From assembly GCF_056746865.1 (NCBI RefSeq), contig NZ_CM163382.1: DNA of 64,000 bases. One strand, given 5' to 3'. This document shows positions 6,329-57,164 of this stretch, one piece after another (the first letter of the stretch is position 1; the number at the start of each line of letters is the position of its first letter). The notes below the pieces were generated by a model, which saw only the letters and a list, made by a program, of their open reading frames with translations, was not told the DNA's origin and ran no database searches. The position numbers and the translations under genes are program-made.

Positions 6329-7723
6329 TCAATATGCCGCTTTGTTAACGAAGCCTTTGAATACCGTCAGGAAAACGATTTTGATATCGAACCAGACGCT
6401 CCATTCGCGGATGTACTCAAGGTCGAACTCGACGCGTTTTTCCATTTTCTCCAGCGTGTCGGTTTCGCCGCGCCAGCCGTTAATCTGCGCCCAGCCGGTA
6501 ATGCCCGGTTTCACCTTATGGCGCAGCATGTAGCCTTCAATGAGCTGTCGATACTGTTCGTTATGCGCCACCGCGTGTGGACGTGGCCCGACAATCGACA
6601 TCCCGCCAGTCAGCACATTGATAAACTGCGGCAATTCGTCCAGCGAGGTGCGGCGCAGAAAGTTCCCCACTTTGGTGACGCGCGGATCGTTCTGCGTCGC
6701 CTGGGTCACCACTTTGTCGTTCTCCATCACTTTCATCGAACGGAACTTCCACACTTTGATCGGCTTGCCATCCATGCCATAGCGAGTCTGGCGGAAAATA
6801 ACCGGTCCTGGTGAACTGAGTTTTACCGCCAGCGCAATACAGCACAGCACCGGGGAGATCAGCAGCAGGATAAGCGTTGCCAGCACAATGTCTTCTGCAC
6901 GTTTTATCAGGCGGTTAACCCCGGAAAGCGGCGTGTCATACAGCGGCACCACCGGTACGCCGTTCATCTCTTCGATACGTGAATGGAGAATGTTGAAGGT
7001 AAAGACGTCGGGGATCAGCAGCACCGAACAGGTGGTGTCCGCCAATTGATGGACCAGTTTTTTCACTCGCGCGCCGTCGCACATTTGCATCGCGATATAG
7101 ACGTTATGAATCTTGCCCGCTTTTGCATCCTCTACCAGCTGTTGCAGATTGCCCGCCCAGTCGTTAGAAACGCCGCCCGGTTTTGGGTCGTGGTATACGC
7201 CCACCACTTCAAACCCTAACCACGGCTGATTACGGAAGCTCTCCATCAGCATTTGTCCGGCGGCTAAATCCCCCGCTACGGCGACCATGCGCTTGTTATA
7301 GCCATGATTACGCAGCCAGCCCGCCCCAATGCGAATACATGAACGGCAAACCACCAGTCCGATACTGGTCAGCCCATACCACGCCAGCCAGATTTTCAGT
7401 TGCGTGTCGAAATCATTGTTGAACGCCACCAGTCCGGCGCTGAAAATCACGCTTAAGGTCCAGTTTTGTAGCAGCAGGGCAAATTCTGTCGCTGCCCGAA
7501 CACCGCGCCATGAGCGATAAAAATCGGTGATGCCGCCCAACATCTGGAACACCACCAGCGTAATCAGCGCCACCAACAGGTGCATGTAGAGGAATGACAG
7601 TCCGCTCACTTCGCAAACCAGCCATAGTCCGGCAAACATGATGGTGATATCTGAAAAGCGTTGCACCATAGAGATTAACGATGCATTGGTTTTCGCTCGC
7701 TCGCGCTTTTTTAGATTTGTCAT
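6329..7723 (-). CDS. wcaJ: undecaprenyl-phosphate glucose-1-phosphate transferase WcaJ (464 aa)
   Basis: ORF track 464 aa; N-terminal TM segments plus C-terminal sugar transferase motif (VGPRPHAVAHNEQY, DELPQF); synteny. Confidence 0.9.
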   Translation of the reverse strand: MTNLKKRERAKTNASLISMVQRFSDITIMFAGLWLVCEVSGLSFLYMHLLVALITLVVFQMLGGITDFYRSWRGVRAATEFALLLQNWTLSVIFSAGLVAFNNDFDTQLKIWLAWYGLTSIGLVVCRSCIRIGAGWLRNHGYNKRMVAVAGDLAAGQMLMESFRNQPWLGFEVVGVYHDPKPGGVSNDWAGNLQQLVEDAKAGKIHNVYIAMQMCDGARVKKLVHQLADTTCSVLLIPDVFTFNILHSRIEEMNGVPVVPLYDTPLSGVNRLIKRAEDIVLATLILLLISPVLCCIALAVKLSSPGPVIFRQTRYGMDGKPIKVWKFRSMKVMENDKVVTQATQNDPRVTKVGNFLRRTSLDELPQFINVLTGGMSIVGPRPHAVAHNEQYRQLIEGYMLRHKVKPGITGWAQINGWRGETDTLEKMEKRVEFDLEYIREWSVWFDIKIVFLTVFKGFVNKAAY

Positions 7724-7742
7724 CGTTGTTCCTGTTATTAGC

Positions 7743-7766
7743 CCCTTACCCGTAATGGGGTAAGGG
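7743..7766 (-). other. intra-operon stem-loop between cpsG and wcaJ (9-bp stem cccttaccc / gggtaaggg, 6-nt loop)
   Basis: Perfect inverted repeat read directly in the 54-bp cpsG-wcaJ gap. Confidence 0.3.
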
Positions 7767-7777
7767 AAGATCCGACA

Positions 7778-9148
7778 TTACTCGTTCAGCAACGTCAGCA
7801 GAGTTCGCGTTCGCGCTTCCATCAGCGGCACATCACCGCGTGATTCCACATTCAACCGCACCACCGGCTCGGTGTTGGAGGAGCGCAGATTAAAGCGCCA
7901 GTCGGCAAAGGTCATGCTGATGCCATCGGTGCGATCCACCGCCAGCGCCTCGCGGCTAAAGTGCTGTTCCACGCGGTTAATCGCCTCAACGGGTTGTGCC
8001 AGTTTGCTGTTGATCTCACCGCTTGCCGGAAACGCCGCCATCCGGTCGCGCACCAGTTCGCCCAGCGTTTTTCCTTTCAGGCACACCAGTTCGGCGACCA
8101 GCAGCCACGGGATCATGCCGCTGTCGCAGTAAGCGAAATCACGGAAGTAATGGTGGGCGCTCATTTCGCCACCGTAGATAGCGTCTTCCTTGCGCATACG
8201 TTCTTTAATAAAGGCGTGTCCGGTTTTCGACATTACCGGGGTGCCGCCTGCGGCAGTCACCACATCAACGGTGTTCCAGGAGAGACGTGGATCGTGGATG
8301 ATCTTCGCGCCGGGATTTTTTTCGAGGAATGCTTCTGCCAGCAGGCCGACAATGTAGTAGCCCTCAATAAACTGCCCTTTTTCGTCAAACAGGAAACAGC
8401 GGTCAAAATCGCCATCAAAGGCAATGCCCATATCCGCGCCGTGTTTGATGACCGCATTACGGGTGTCGTCGCGGCATTCCGGCAGCAACGGGTTAGGAAT
8501 ACCGTTGGGGAAATTGCCGTCCGGCGTGTTGTGCACTTTGATTAATTCCACTGGTGCGCCGAGGGCTTTAAAGCGGGCTTCAATGGCGTCCACCACCGGA
8601 CCCGCTGCGCCGTTCCCGGAGTTGATCACCAGCTTGAGCGGCGTGAGGTTTTTGACATTGATATAACCGAACAGGTGATCAACGTAAGCGTCACGCAGGT
8701 TGATTTGCCGATAGCGACCGCGTTTGGTTTCATCGACGGGAGGAAAGTCGTTGGCTTCAGCCAGACGCTGGACGTCGCGCAGTCCGGTATCACCGCTGAT
8801 CGGGCGAGCCCCCTCGCGCACCAGCTTCATGCCGTTATAATCCATCGGATTATGGCTGGCGGTAACTTCAATGCCGCCATCCACGCCGAGATGGAACGTG
8901 GCGAAATAGATCTCTTCGGTGCCGGACATGCCGATATCCAGCACATCGACGCCCGCATCCTGTAAACCTCTCGCCAGCGCCAGTTTTAAGGTTTCGCTGG
9001 TGAGGCGGACATCACCGCCTAACACAATGGTTTTCGGTTTGAGAAATTCGCCATAAGCGCGACCAATGCGCCAGGCAATATCTTCATTCAGTTCTTCGCC
9101 TAATTTCCCGCGAATATCATAGGCTTTAAAGCAGGTTAATTTTTTCAT
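7778..9148 (-). CDS. cpsG: phosphomannomutase CpsG/ManB (456 aa)
   Basis: ORF track frame 7778..9196; start placed at ATG giving [17 protein letters not shown]...; phosphohexomutase active-site context TASHNP present. Confidence 0.92.
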
Positions 9149-12482: not shown

Positions 12483-13447
12483 TACCCCCGAAAGCGGTCT
12501 TGATTCTCAAGGAACCACTGGTAAGTGCTGGCAAGCCCCGCTTCCAGTGAGATTTCGTGATACCAGCCAAGCTGATGCAGGCGCGTCACATCCAGCAGTT
12601 TGCGCGGCGTACCATCCGGTTTGCTGGCATCAAAAACCACCCGACCTTTGTAACCCACCACTTTGGCGATGGTTTGCGCCAGCTCGCGGATAGTGCAGTC
12701 AACGCCCGTGCCGACGTTAATGTGCGACAGCATCGGTTGGGTGTTCTCCAGCCAGACTTCGTGCGCCAGCTCCATCACATGAATGCTTGCCGCCGCCATA
12801 TCATCGACGTGCAGAAATTCACGCATCGGTGTACCGCTGCCCCATACCACCACGTCCGGCGCATTCTGTGCCGTCGCCTCGTGGAAGCGACGCAGCAATG
12901 CTGGGATCACATGCGAATTACTCGGGTGGAAGTTGTCATGCGGCCCGTACAGGTTGGTCGGCATGACCGAGCGGTAATCGCGTCCGTACTGACGGTTGTA
13001 AGATTCGCACAGTTTGATCCCGGCGATTTTGGCAATGGCGTAAGGCTCGTTGGTCGGCTCCAGCGTGCCCTGCAATAACTCGCTTTCTGCCATCGGCTGT
13101 TTTGCCAGTTTCGGGTAGATGCAGGACGATCCAAGAAACAGCAGTTTGTTCACGTCGTTCTGATGCGCGGCGTGAATGATGTTGCTCTCAATCATCATGT
13201 TCTGGTAGATGAAATCCGCCGGATAGGTGTTGTTGGCAACAATGCCGCCCACTTTCGCCGCCGCCAGATAGACCTGGTCAATGCGTTCGCTGGCAAAGAA
13301 ATCATGCACCGCGCGGCTGTCCAGCAGGTTCAGTTCATCGCGGGTACGTAATACCAGCTCCACATCACCGCGCTGTTCGAGCTGCCGCTTGATGGCAGAA
13401 CCGACCATCCCGCGATGGCCAGCGATAAAAATGCGTTGTTTACTCAT
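12482..13447 (-). CDS. fcl: GDP-L-fucose synthase Fcl/WcaG (321 aa)
   Basis: ORF track 321 aa; N-terminal NAD(P)-binding motif ([14 protein letters not shown]); synteny after gmd. Confidence 0.92.
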
Positions 13448-52981: not shown

Positions 52982-54343
52982 ATGTTTAAACCGGAACTCC
53001 TTTCCCCGGCGGGAACGCTGAAAAATATGCGTTACGCTTTCGCTTATGGCGCAGATGCTGTTTATGCGGGCCAGCCGCGTTACTCCCTGCGTGTGCGCAA
53101 CAACGAATTTAACCACGAAAATCTCCAGCTCGGCATCAATGAAGCCCACGCGCTGGGGAAAAAGTTTTATGTCGTGGTCAACATTGCACCGCACAACGCC
53201 AAGCTGAAAACCTTTATCCGTGACCTGAAACCGGTGGTGGAAATGGGGCCGGATGCGCTGATTATGTCCGATCCAGGGCTGATTATGCTGGTGCGTGAGC
53301 ACTTCCCTGAAATGCCGATCCATCTCTCGGTACAGGCTAACGCCGTGAACTGGGCGACGGTGAAATTCTGGCAGCAAATGGGCCTGACCCGCGTGATCCT
53401 CTCTCGCGAGCTGTCGCTGGAAGAGATTGAAGAGATCCGCAATCAGGTGCCGGATATGGAGGTAGAGATCTTCGTTCACGGCGCGCTGTGCATGGCCTAC
53501 TCCGGTCGCTGCCTGCTCTCTGGCTATATCAACAAGCGCGACCCGAACCAGGGCACCTGCACCAACGCCTGCCGCTGGGAATACAACGTCCAGGAAGGGA
53601 AAGAAGATGACGTTGGCAACATCGTACACAAGTACGAGCCGATTCCGGTGCAAAATGTTGAGCCGACGCTGGGTATCGGCGCACCAACCGACAAAGTGTT
53701 TATGATCGAAGAGGCCCAGCGTCCGGGCGAGTATATGACCGCGTTTGAAGATGAGCACGGCACTTACATCATGAACTCGAAAGATCTGCGCGCCATCGCC
53801 CATGTAGAACGCCTGACCAAAATGGGAGTGCATTCGCTGAAAATCGAAGGCCGTACCAAATCTTTCTACTATTGCGCACGCACCGCGCAGGTTTACCGTA
53901 AAGCTATCGATGACGCAGCTGCGGGAAAACCATTCGATACCAGCCTGCTGGAAACTCTGGAAGGTCTGGCGCATCGTGGCTATACCGAAGGTTTCCTGCG
54001 TCGTCATACTCACGACGATTATCAGAACTACGAATACGGTTATTCAGTTTCTGACCGCCAGCAGTTTGTTGGTGAGTTTACCGGTGAGCGCAAGGGCGAC
54101 CTCGCGGCGGTAGCGGTGAAAAATAAATTCTCCGTTGGTGACAGCCTTGAGCTGATGACGCCGCAAGGCAACATTAACTTTACCCTTGAGCACATGGAAA
54201 ACGCCAAAGGTGAAGCTATGCCGGTCGCACCAGGCGATGGTTATACTGTGTGGCTCCCGGTCCCGCAGGATCTTGAGCTAAATTACGCGCTCCTGATGCG
54301 TAATTTCTCCGGGGAAACCACGCGTAACCCCCACGGTAAGTGA
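52982..54343 (+). CDS. yegQ: peptidase U32-family protein YegQ (tRNA hydroxylation protein TrhP-like, 453 aa)
   Basis: ORF track 453 aa beginning MFKPELLSPAGTLKNMRYAFAYGADAVYAGQPRYSLR. Confidence 0.9.
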   Translation: MFKPELLSPAGTLKNMRYAFAYGADAVYAGQPRYSLRVRNNEFNHENLQLGINEAHALGKKFYVVVNIAPHNAKLKTFIRDLKPVVEMGPDALIMSDPGLIMLVREHFPEMPIHLSVQANAVNWATVKFWQQMGLTRVILSRELSLEEIEEIRNQVPDMEVEIFVHGALCMAYSGRCLLSGYINKRDPNQGTCTNACRWEYNVQEGKEDDVGNIVHKYEPIPVQNVEPTLGIGAPTDKVFMIEEAQRPGEYMTAFEDEHGTYIMNSKDLRAIAHVERLTKMGVHSLKIEGRTKSFYYCARTAQVYRKAIDDAAAGKPFDTSLLETLEGLAHRGYTEGFLRRHTHDDYQNYEYGYSVSDRQQFVGEFTGERKGDLAAVAVKNKFSVGDSLELMTPQGNINFTLEHMENAKGEAMPVAPGDGYTVWLPVPQDLELNYALLMRNFSGETTRNPHGK

Positions 54344-54479
54344 TTAATTTCGATTATTTTTCCCGGATGGAAAATTCTTAGAAACCGATCACATACAGCT
54401 GCATTTATTAAGGTTATCATCCGTTTCGCTGAAAAACATAACCCATAAAATGCTAGCTGTACCAGGAACCACCTCCTTA

Positions 54480-54514
54480 GCCTGTGTAATCTCCCTTACA
54501 CGGGCTTATTTTTT
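54480..54514 (+). terminator. rho-independent terminator-like hairpin downstream of yegQ (gcctgtgtaa-tctccc-ttacacgggc + ttattttttat)
   Basis: 10-bp stem (one G-U) followed by T-run, read directly. Confidence 0.5.
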
Positions 54515-54671
54515 ATGCATAAGCCGTATCCTGGTCACCGTCTTCCATTGACCACATCGATAGAATCCCCCTTCATAACACGATGCCTTTCACGTAACGG
54601 CATCGTGCTCGTACAGATTCCGGCTACGCACAACCAGAACGCGCATGTTTGACGCTTACCAAAAAATATTC

Positions 54672-54989
54672 TCACTCTCCACATTTGAATGTCAGACGAG
54701 CGACGCCATGTAATCCTGCACCTTCTGTCTTCAGGTCAACTATCTGCATTTTTTTGCCCTGAGTAACACAGAAATGAGCTGCATCATTTTTTACTATATT
54801 TTCTGCACCAGAAATTCTGCCCCTGGCTAAAGAAGCTTCGGCTTCGGTGTAGTATTGGTTATCGAGTTTACGCTGAATATTACTTTTATATGCAAGACCA
54901 AATTTACCGATACTTGTCTCATCATTATGTACAGCACACCCAGACATAAGAAAAACACTAATTAATGATATAGCAGCTATCTTTTTCAT
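54672..54989 (-). CDS. yegR: small lipoprotein YegR (105 aa)
   Basis: ORF track frame 54672..55049; start placed at ATG giving MKKIAAISLISVFLMSGC (lipobox). Confidence 0.85.
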   Translation of the reverse strand: MKKIAAISLISVFLMSGCAVHNDETSIGKFGLAYKSNIQRKLDNQYYTEAEASLARGRISGAENIVKNDAAHFCVTQGKKMQIVDLKTEGAGLHGVARLTFKCGE

Positions 54990-55403
54990 CTTACCTTCCC
55001 CCATTAAATACCAACGACACGCTCTGGTGTTAAAATATAATAATGGCATGATTATTATAATTGAATAGGATTATAATAAATGTTCTGTACAACATTTCCT
55101 ACATAAGTAGGAATTACATACACGGAGGCCCTTCCGGGTAACCCCATGGGGGGGTTAATATATTTTTAATAGTATATTGAAGATGCCACTGTTTAGTTGA
55201 ATATTAGGTATATGCTCTTTTTTGAAATTTACCTATGGCTACCGTTAACATTCACTGTCCCCATTGCAAGCTCCTGGTGGTAACCACTGAATCCTCTATA
55301 CTTGAACTGATTTTTTATCCTCCGACTTTCATCCTGTTCTGACTCCACCTTTTCTTTTCTGCTCTACACTATCTACAGACCAATCATAAAGGCACATACG
55401 ATC

Positions 55404-56303
55404 ATGGCAGAATTTCCCGCCAGCTTACTGATTCTTAATGGCAAAAGTACTGACAATTTACCATTGCGCGAAGCAATTATGCTGTTGCGTGAGGAAGGAA
55501 TGACGATCCATGTGCGGGTCACCTGGGAGAAAGGCGATGCCGCACGATATGTAGAGGAGGCCCGGAAGTTGGGCGTCGCAACGGTGATTGCCGGTGGTGG
55601 CGATGGCACCATTAATGAAGTTTCTACGGCGTTGATTCAGTGTGAGGGGGATGACATACCCGCGCTAGGAATTTTGCCATTAGGAACCGCCAATGATTTT
55701 GCCACCAGTGTAAGGATTCCTGAGGCACTGGATAAGGCGCTGAAACTGGCAATTGCCGGTGACGCCATTGCGATAGATATGGCGCAGGTCAACAAACAAA
55801 CCTGTTTTATTAATATGGCGACAGGCGGATTTGGGACGCGTATTACCACAGAAACGCCGGAAAAATTAAAAGCCGCGCTGGGTGGCGTCTCTTACATCAT
55901 TCATGGCTTAATGCGCATGGATACTCTGCAACCGGACCGTTGTGAGATCCGCGGTGAAAACTTTCACTGGCAAGGTGACGCCCTGGTCATTGGTATTGGT
56001 AACGGGCGTCAGGCCGGTGGCGGTCAGCAATTGTGCCCGAACGCGTTAATTAACGATGGCTTGCTGCAACTGCGCATTTTTACCGGCGATGAAATTCTTC
56101 CGGCTCTCGTATCAACATTAAAATCTGACGAAGATAACCCGAATATTATCGAAGGCGCTTCGTCGTGGTTTGATATACAAGCCCCACACGAAATCACTTT
56201 TAATCTTGATGGCGAACCGTTGAGCGGACAAAACTTTCATATTGAAATACTTCCGGCGGCGTTGCGTTGTCGATTACCACCAGATTGCCCATTGTTGCGT
56301 TAA
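55404..56303 (+). CDS. yegS: lipid kinase YegS (diacylglycerol-kinase catalytic family, 299 aa)
   Basis: ORF track 299 aa; DAGK-type motif ([13 protein letters not shown]). Confidence 0.9.
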
Positions 56304-56384: not shown

Positions 56385-57164
56385 CTACACCGTAATTAAT
56401 TTTACCCGTGTCTTCTGCAATGCCAGTTTATCCACCTCTGACACGGCATCATCGGTAATAATAATGTCAATTTTTTCGATTGGGAGTACCTGATTAAAAC
56501 CGCGACGGTTAAATTTCGATGAATCGAGAACGGCAATCACTTTATTAGCGGCTGTGACCATCGCCCCGCTAATCGAATAACCTTCATTAAAGGTCGTAAT
56601 ACCATTAACCGCATCAATACCATCAGCACCGACAAACATTAAATCGGCATTAATATCCTGCAATGAACGCTCGGCAATGGAACCATGCATCGAGCGCGTT
56701 TTATGGCGGACGGTGCCACCACAGACGACCAGAGTAATGTCTTTATTTTCGGAAAGGGCAAACGCCGCCGGGAGACTGTTGGTAATCACCGTGATATTTT
56801 TGGCGGTCATTAAACCTTCGGCGATAAGCATTGTCGTACTTCCGCTGTCGAGAATAACGGTCATCCCTTCGTGGATCATTTTGACTGCCGCTTGCGCTAT
56901 TCTGTTTTTTGGCGCACTGGCGAGCTGAAATCGCTCTTTAAACCCAACTTCCTGGGTCTCGGTTTCACTATTACCGGACATTATTTTCGCCGCACCGCCA
57001 TGAAAGCGCGTAACCACGCCTTTTTGTTCGAGAAAGCGCAAATCGGCACGGATTGTCGCTTCCGAGGCAGCAAATACTCCCGCCAGATCCTGAACAAGCA
57101 CGGTTCCCTGTTCATTCACTAATTGGATGATCTTATTCCTTCGCTCGAATGAATTCATCGTCAT
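56385..57164 (-). CDS. gatR: DeoR-family galactitol operon repressor GatR, intact (259 codons)
   Basis: ORF track 259 aa; N-terminal HTH (RRNKIIQLVNEQGTVLVQDLAGVF) + DeoR sugar-binding domain; downstream of gatD. Confidence 0.88.
   Translation of the reverse strand: MTMNSFERRNKIIQLVNEQGTVLVQDLAGVFAASEATIRADLRFLEQKGVVTRFHGGAAKIMSGNSETETQEVGFKERFQLASAPKNRIAQAAVKMIHEGMTVILDSGSTTMLIAEGLMTAKNITVITNSLPAAFALSENKDITLVVCGGTVRHKTRSMHGSIAERSLQDINADLMFVGADGIDAVNGITTFNEGYSISGAMVTAANKVIAVLDSSKFNRRGFNQVLPIEKIDIIITDDAVSEVDKLALQKTRVKLITV

Follow-up and report, generated by a model that had tools for sequence, protein, structure and literature searches.

Operators of the NarL/LuxR type, such as the NarL 7-2-7 sites and the lux boxes, consist of an inverted repeat with half-sites of 7-9 bp and a span of 16-20 bp that is bound by a dimer with GerE helix-turn-helix domains. 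They are situated just upstream of, or overlap, the -35 region of activator-dependent sigma-70 promoters. BvgA of Bordetella pertussis, a homologue of EvgA, binds as dimers to inverted heptads with the consensus TTTCCTA; it activates transcription from an inverted repeat of high affinity, beyond which more dimers follow every 21-22 bp or so in the direction of the core promoter. For EvgA itself, Masuda & Church (2003) reportedly described an inverted repeat of 18 bp that six upstream regions of the seven directly EvgA-induced operons have in common, yegR among them, and are said to have obtained gel shifts with all six of the repeat-bearing regions.

EvgA belongs to the NarL family, and the EvgS/EvgA system is confined to Escherichia coli and Shigella (PMC9496106). 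Inverted repeats upstream of yfdX and yfdWUVE are bound by EvgA (PMC3720670), and the yegR promoter is described as strongly bound in a review (PMC8147483). yegR was found to be up 12-fold alongside yfdX, ydeO and emrK (PMC5811628). Both the yegR-yegS and the emrK-evgA spacers are listed as sigma-70 SELEX sites of RNA polymerase with an H-NS mark, and in the yegR-yegS spacer sigma-70 SELEX promoters are predicted for both directions (PMC3946193). No explicit 18-bp EvgA consensus or 'EvgA box' was found by full-text search of the literature, which had the primary EvgA papers outside its reach.

The DNA analysed here (the window) is a stretch of 64,000 nucleotides from contig NZ_CM163382.1 of NCBI RefSeq assembly GCF_056746865.1. 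The features around the yegR-yegS spacer are as follows.

54672-54989, minus strand: yegR, annotated as protein or lipoprotein YegR (105 amino acids beginning MKKIAAISLISVFLMSGC, lipoprotein-type signal); ATG at 54989
54990-55095, minus strand: yegR promoter and 5' leader region, with the columns shared by EvgA promoters, 15% variable positions and a sigma-70 SELEX assignment
55096-55113, no strand: very probable EvgA box, an 18-bp inverted repeat TTCCTACA-TA-AGTAGGAA, recognized from sequence, recurrence, conservation and literature
55096-55103, plus strand: yegR-proximal half-site TTCCTACA, a perfect match to TTCYTACA
55106-55113, minus strand: yegR-distal half-site TTCCTACT (AGTAGGAA on the plus strand), matching 7 of 8 consensus positions
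55114-55180, no strand: hypervariable stretch on the yegS side of the box, with 60% variable positions, indels and a GC-rich hairpin
55404-56303, plus strand: yegS (lipid kinase), the divergent neighbour; ATG at 55404, with its own conserved proximal block at 55314-55403

The window is E. coli DNA. A 1.15-kb region around the palindrome matched 5,423 of 5,426 complete E. coli genomes, in which the gene order is annotated as yegQ(trhP)-yegR-yegS. Within 54300-55450 the sole Rfam match was CyaR (54426-54511, 100.7 bits). The P2-type remnant that lies between the cyaR 3' end and yegR in K-12 (ogrK, yegZ; cryptic prophage PR-X) is absent here, as judged by comparison of window 54512-54671 with positions 7184-7989 of the K-12 locus L001. 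Beyond yegS, gatR is intact as a 259-codon open reading frame (56385-57164, minus strand); in K-12 the gene is split by IS3E (compared with L001 9694-11728).

The initial annotation had reported a perfect 7-4-7 palindrome, TTCCTAC-ATAA-GTAGGAA, at 55096-55113 in the AT-rich divergent spacer between yegR and yegS. Both the palindrome and its location were confirmed. The arms (TTCCTAC, 55096-55102, and GTAGGAA, 55107-55113) are 100% complementary and stand 4 nt apart (ATAA, 55103-55106), and the two genes lie on opposite strands on either side of a 414-bp spacer. Pairing ends at the arms, with T55095 and T55114 unpaired (context CAACAT-TTCCTAC-ATAA-GTAGGAA-TTACAT). The yegR ATG lies 115.5 bp downstream of the centre of the palindrome (55104.5), and the yegS ATG is 300 bp away from it. 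The identical 18-mer is found in K-12 (2,168,413-2,168,430; L001 8414-8431), and the 64-kb window holds no further copy at up to 3 mismatches (0.02 expected). Perfect 7-4-7 inverted repeats number six in the window against a mean of 4.9 in Markov shuffles, and the spacer itself has five other 7-N-7 repeats. The 7-4-7 geometry was dropped as evidence, since its frequency is no higher than chance; what departs from chance in this palindrome is the specific sequence and not the geometry.

The half-site TTCCTACA resembled the EvgA-binding inverted repeat, and this resemblance was used as a lead for sequence tests. In a reverse test, the 14 arm positions TTCCTAC-N4-GTAGGAA were scanned over 62 kb of K-12 target loci (ydeO-safA-ydeP, emrKY-evgAS-yfdE-yfdV-oxc-frc-yfdX and gadE) and over the window. 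Copies upstream of other genes, for which the initial annotation had proposed a search, were found: the 62 kb of K-12 loci contain four matches at ≤2 mismatches, against 0.06 expected from shuffles and 0.2 analytically. The expectation within the five target spacers alone is 0.006. All four matches are intergenic, upstream of safA-ydeO, emrK/evgA, frc and yfdX, and a fifth site, at ydeP, was recovered at 3 mismatches.

safA-ydeO: EvgA-type site TTCTTACAGCTGTAGGCA (arm scan, ≤2 mismatches)
emrK/evgA spacer: EvgA-type site TTCTTACGCCTGTAGGAT (arm scan, ≤2 mismatches)
frc: EvgA-type site TTCTTACAACTGTAAGAA (arm scan, ≤2 mismatches)
yfdX: EvgA-type site GTCTTACAATTGTAGGAA (arm scan, ≤2 mismatches)
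ydeP: EvgA-type site TTCTTACAGGTGTAGGCT (arm scan, 3 mismatches)

Across a total of 138 kb, no such arrangement of arms was seen at ≤2 mismatches other than at EvgA-activated promoters. The consensus TTCYTACA-NN-TGTARGAA was re-derived empirically from the six sites, the five being located upstream of reported EvgA targets, and it agrees with the motif reportedly described by Masuda & Church (2003). The yegR site fits 15 of the 16 specified positions, with both 7-nt arms perfect. Like the direct EvgA boxes of K-12 (ydeP, safA-ydeO, emrKY/evgAS, yfdX and frc/yfdWUVE), it is an intergenic 18-bp repeat of this form upstream of an EvgA-induced gene, and its AT-rich, H-NS-marked setting is also that of the emrK-evgA spacer. 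Its arms are the most perfect of the six (7+7 fully complementary, with C at position 4), whereas its centre is unusual (TA, with A rather than T at position 11); the base concerned is the innermost of the yegR-distal half-site, which is T in the other five sites. The yegR promoter has one box, unlike that of yfdX, in which two EvgA-type boxes 38 bp apart were seen (L003 20501-20518 and 20539-20556), of which the distal is strong and the proximal (ATCTTACAGTTGTAGTTA, 14.6 bits) weaker. An EvgA-like 18-mer, TTCTTACGCATGAAAGAA, lies inside the mdtE coding sequence (L004 9887-9904; 13.9 bits, 3 arm mismatches) and is probably there by chance; mdtE is reported as induced on EvgA overproduction. 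A matrix scan of the gadE upstream region gave no convincing EvgA box.

The inverted-repeat dimer layout is shared with NarL/LuxR-type operators in general, from which the yegR site differs in a half-site sequence and spacing that are specific to EvgA, itself a NarL-family protein (PMC9496106). The likeness to BvgA sites is closer in sequence, in that the window's aTTTCCTAc is nearly identical to the TTTCCTA half-site; the organism and the regulon are different.

Scoring was performed with a symmetrized leave-one-out matrix built from the five non-yegR sites only. With the strict matrix (18 positions, low pseudocount) the palindrome scored 11.8 bits and ranked second in the window, a score inside the range of the shuffled-window maxima (9.0 ± 2.4, maximum 14.6). 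The score is low because the central bases T9, A10 and A11 are absent from the other five sites. With a pseudocount of 2 the palindrome ranked first, yet 19 of 200 shuffles reached its score. Masking of the central bases, which was a post hoc choice, placed it first of about 64,000 window positions, both when the central NN was masked (20.4 versus 12.9 bits; 0 of 200 shuffles) and with an arms-only matrix (21.3 bits; again 0 of 200 shuffles). The runner-up match in the window, TACTGACGGTTGTAAGAT at 12987-13004, has one good half-site only, lies within a 321-codon open reading frame and is likely to be a chance match.

Conservation was assessed within Escherichia, using an alignment of 13 E. 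coli spacer variants and one divergent locus (L006); variability was counted over the 12 full-length E. coli spacers. Although labelled E. coli, L006 shows only 93% identity in YegR and 69% in the proximal upstream region. In the spacer as a whole, identity to the window is 90-95% for most genomes. Variation of the palindrome in close relatives had been named in the initial annotation as one outcome that would count against an operator; instead the box was invariant in all 13 E. coli variants. In the full-length spacers 25.6% of positions vary, compared with 0 of the 18 in the box. A 27-nt invariant run (55091-55117) includes the box; toward yegS, 60% of the adjoining 67 nt vary and indels occur; on the promoter and leader side of yegR the figure is 15%. 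Of the 5,426 complete genomes, at least 5,332 (98.3%) carry the box unchanged. The count combines 5,035 genomes matched by a 30-nt megablast query, which could match only where 28 consecutive nucleotides covering the entire box were identical, with 297 extra genomes that were matched once the O157-type SNP in the flank (55090) had been put into the query. evgA is present in 5,398 of the 5,426 genomes. In L006 all 14 arm bases are kept and 3 of the 4 spacer bases are changed. Arms that are constrained around a spacer that is free to vary form the pattern expected of an operator with two protein half-sites under purifying selection, which is how we read the alignment.

Outside this group, a contig search gave only three more distant yegR loci (L008-L010, 82-84% identity), from other enterobacterial genomes. 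The box is absent from these three yegR homologues, which have a different upstream neighbour; their lack of a box fits with the confinement of EvgS/EvgA to E. coli and Shigella (PMC9496106). Two further records, a 'Citrobacter sp.' metagenome-assembled genome (L005) and a 385-bp contig of 'Xanthobacter autotrophicus' (L007), carry yegR of the E. coli type (95-100% identity) and are probably mislabelled bins or contamination.

The hypervariable stretch on the yegS side (55114-55180) marks where the conserved promoter block of yegR ends distally and is probably without function. It contains the sole terminator-like match in the spacer (55139-55157, plus strand), and no Rfam family was matched in it. 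The GC-rich hairpin adjacent to the box (55116-55170) was rejected as part of the feature, because shuffled sequences fold as well as it does (z -0.66 and -0.05) and because it is hypervariable. Between the box and yegS the spacer carries a natural insertion in each of two strains, one of about 70 bp in CU42ET-1 (L020, O99:H6) and an IS1 in VL7S7 (L021); the box and the yegR promoter are intact in both.

The register of the six EvgA promoters (yegR, safA, ydeP, emrK, frc and yfdX, taken from the window, L002 and L003) was compared by anchoring each on its proximal box. Five columns were invariant in 6 of 6 promoters, compared with 0.23 expected with randomized registers: CA at +9/+10, TC at +26/+27 and T at +31. 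In the yegR promoter these fall, on the minus strand, at 55087-55086 (CA), 55070-55069 (TC) and 55065 (T), and in that of yfdX the register holds relative to the proximal box. The safA/ydeP and frc/yfdX promoter pairs look paralogous, so that the six represent about four independent lineages. The heptamer TCCTATT stands at the same offset in yegR and safA. The element at +26 to +30 reads TCCTA in yegR and safA, TCTTA in ydeP and TCTGA in frc and yfdX, and is separated from the same bases of the distal half-site by 42 bp, or four helical turns.

Three candidate -10 elements lie in this part of the yegR promoter.

55075-55070, minus strand: candidate -10 TATAAT, placing the box centre at -41.5
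55067-55062, minus strand: candidate -10 TATTCA, placing the box centre at -49.5
55059-55054, minus strand: candidate -10 TATAAT, placing the box centre at -57.5

None of the three is fully preserved in L006, and a scan for consensus promoters found none on the minus strand near the box. A second perfect inverted repeat, AAATGTT-N6-AACATTT (55078-55097), shares 2 nt with the yegR-facing end of the box. This 7-6-7 repeat was rejected as an operator because its arms are not kept in L006; its core, TGTACAGAACA, is kept there and could be a -35 region.

The TCCTA/TCTTA element at +26 to +30 resembles the core of an EvgA half-site and could be one; equally, it could be an element of the core promoter. 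The 42-bp distance of the yegR TCCTA from the matching box bases is at most suggestive of the multi-dimer layout of BvgA, by analogy. We therefore put forward only tentatively, as a rather doubtful reading, that the box may be the high-affinity anchor of a longer EvgA module of fixed register, with CA at +9/+10 and a TC(Y)TA-like element at +26 to +30 in all six promoters. If true, such a module would fit a BvgA-like cooperative loading of more EvgA dimers or, alternatively, an unusual core-promoter design common to these promoters. It is the only point here that is possibly new, and published footprints may cover it already.

The gene under the control of the box is most likely yegR. An operator serving both directions, at which EvgA also activates or represses yegS, is improbable. 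The position of the box within a divergent spacer would allow it, the single box between the two divergent EvgA-controlled operons at emrK/evgA offers a precedent, and sigma-70 SELEX promoters are predicted both ways; but the fixed-register columns are all on the yegR side, and the box centre is separated from the yegS ATG by 300 bp and from the conserved yegS-proximal block (55314-55403) by a stretch in which 24-60% of positions are variable (55114-55313). Spacing to yegS is unconstrained, in that a 9-bp deletion (K-12, O157) is tolerated as well as the insertions in O99:H6 (about 70 bp) and VL7S7 (IS1), and yegS was not found as an EvgA-responsive gene in the literature searched. The box most likely serves yegR only, and not both divergent genes, because the register is fixed on the yegR side and the yegS side tolerates indels and insertions. 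The idea of an operator for the divergent region would thus hold for its yegR half and most likely not for yegS, from which the box is separated by the hypervariable stretch.

It is very unlikely that another regulator, e.g. a NarL/LuxR-family protein with a TCCTA-type half-site such as RcsB, is the main binder and that the likeness to EvgA sites is incidental. The half-sites of NarL-family proteins do resemble each other, and the palindrome has central bases unlike those at the remaining five sites of EvgA. Nevertheless, five known EvgA-activated promoters have the same arms in the same orientation and with the same 18-bp spacing, an arrangement that occurs nowhere else in 138 kb at ≤2 mismatches; the downstream register is that of EvgA promoters, and it is EvgA that the literature names as the binder of the yegR promoter (PMC8147483).

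That the palindrome acts through hairpin formation in RNA or DNA, as an attenuator, terminator, processing site or cruciform, is scarcely credible. The 7-bp RNA stem has a computed energy of -8.4 (plus strand) and -9.0 kcal/mol (minus strand) and beats all 200 shuffles of each 30-mer (z-scores of -6.0 and -4.7), but this folding test favours any perfect palindrome. No T-run follows the palindrome (TTACATAC on the plus strand, ATGTTGTA on the minus strand), the terminator scan made its only call at 55139-55157 and not at the palindrome, and Rfam gave no match there. All plausible yegR starts lie downstream of the palindrome, and the yegS ATG follows it at a distance of 300 nt; its arms never vary, so that no compensatory change backs the pairing, and it is a specific sequence, rather than any hairpin, that recurs at EvgA promoters. 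A functionless palindrome arisen by chance in AT-rich DNA, for which the unremarkable count of 7-4-7 palindromes (6 versus 4.9) and the five other 7-N-7 repeats of the spacer could be cited, has a negligible probability and is effectively refuted by conservation (the 27-nt invariant run beside a 60%-variable stretch, the box in at least 98% of 5,426 genomes and the arms kept in L006) and by sequence-specific recurrence at EvgA targets, together with the EvgA binding in the literature.

The palindrome is thus, with high confidence, the EvgA box of the yegR promoter. That box is already known, and it is neither a new member of the family nor a variant. Found together at this site are the motif, the upstream location, the evolutionary signature, the co-occurrence with evgAS and the shared promoter register. 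The initial annotation had read the repeat as the operator of a dimeric transcription factor, and this is supported by its recurrence at EvgA targets, the conservation of its arms and the EvgA binding given in the review (PMC8147483). For direct binding to this exact repeat the source is second-hand: that review, and the gel shifts attributed to Masuda & Church (2003).

In the mechanism that we propose, activity of the EvgS sensor kinase (in mild acid, according to the literature) would lead to binding of the palindrome by a dimer of phosphorylated EvgA, a NarL/LuxR-type helix-turn-helix response regulator, with one subunit presumably contacting each TTCYTAC(A) half-site. Bound EvgA would activate sigma-70 transcription of yegR on the minus strand. 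Activation may occur by recruitment of RNA polymerase from a position just upstream of or overlapping the -35 region, by relief of H-NS silencing in the AT-rich spacer, or by both.

A reading made from the sequence alone had picked out a real operator, and its regulator could be assigned by sequence comparison. Together with five other inverted repeats, the box defines the direct EvgA regulon of E. coli, the basis of the exponential-phase acid-resistance response. yegR, which encodes a small lipoprotein of unknown function, stays under EvgA control across the population, and this makes YegR a candidate for study in the acid response of E. coli.
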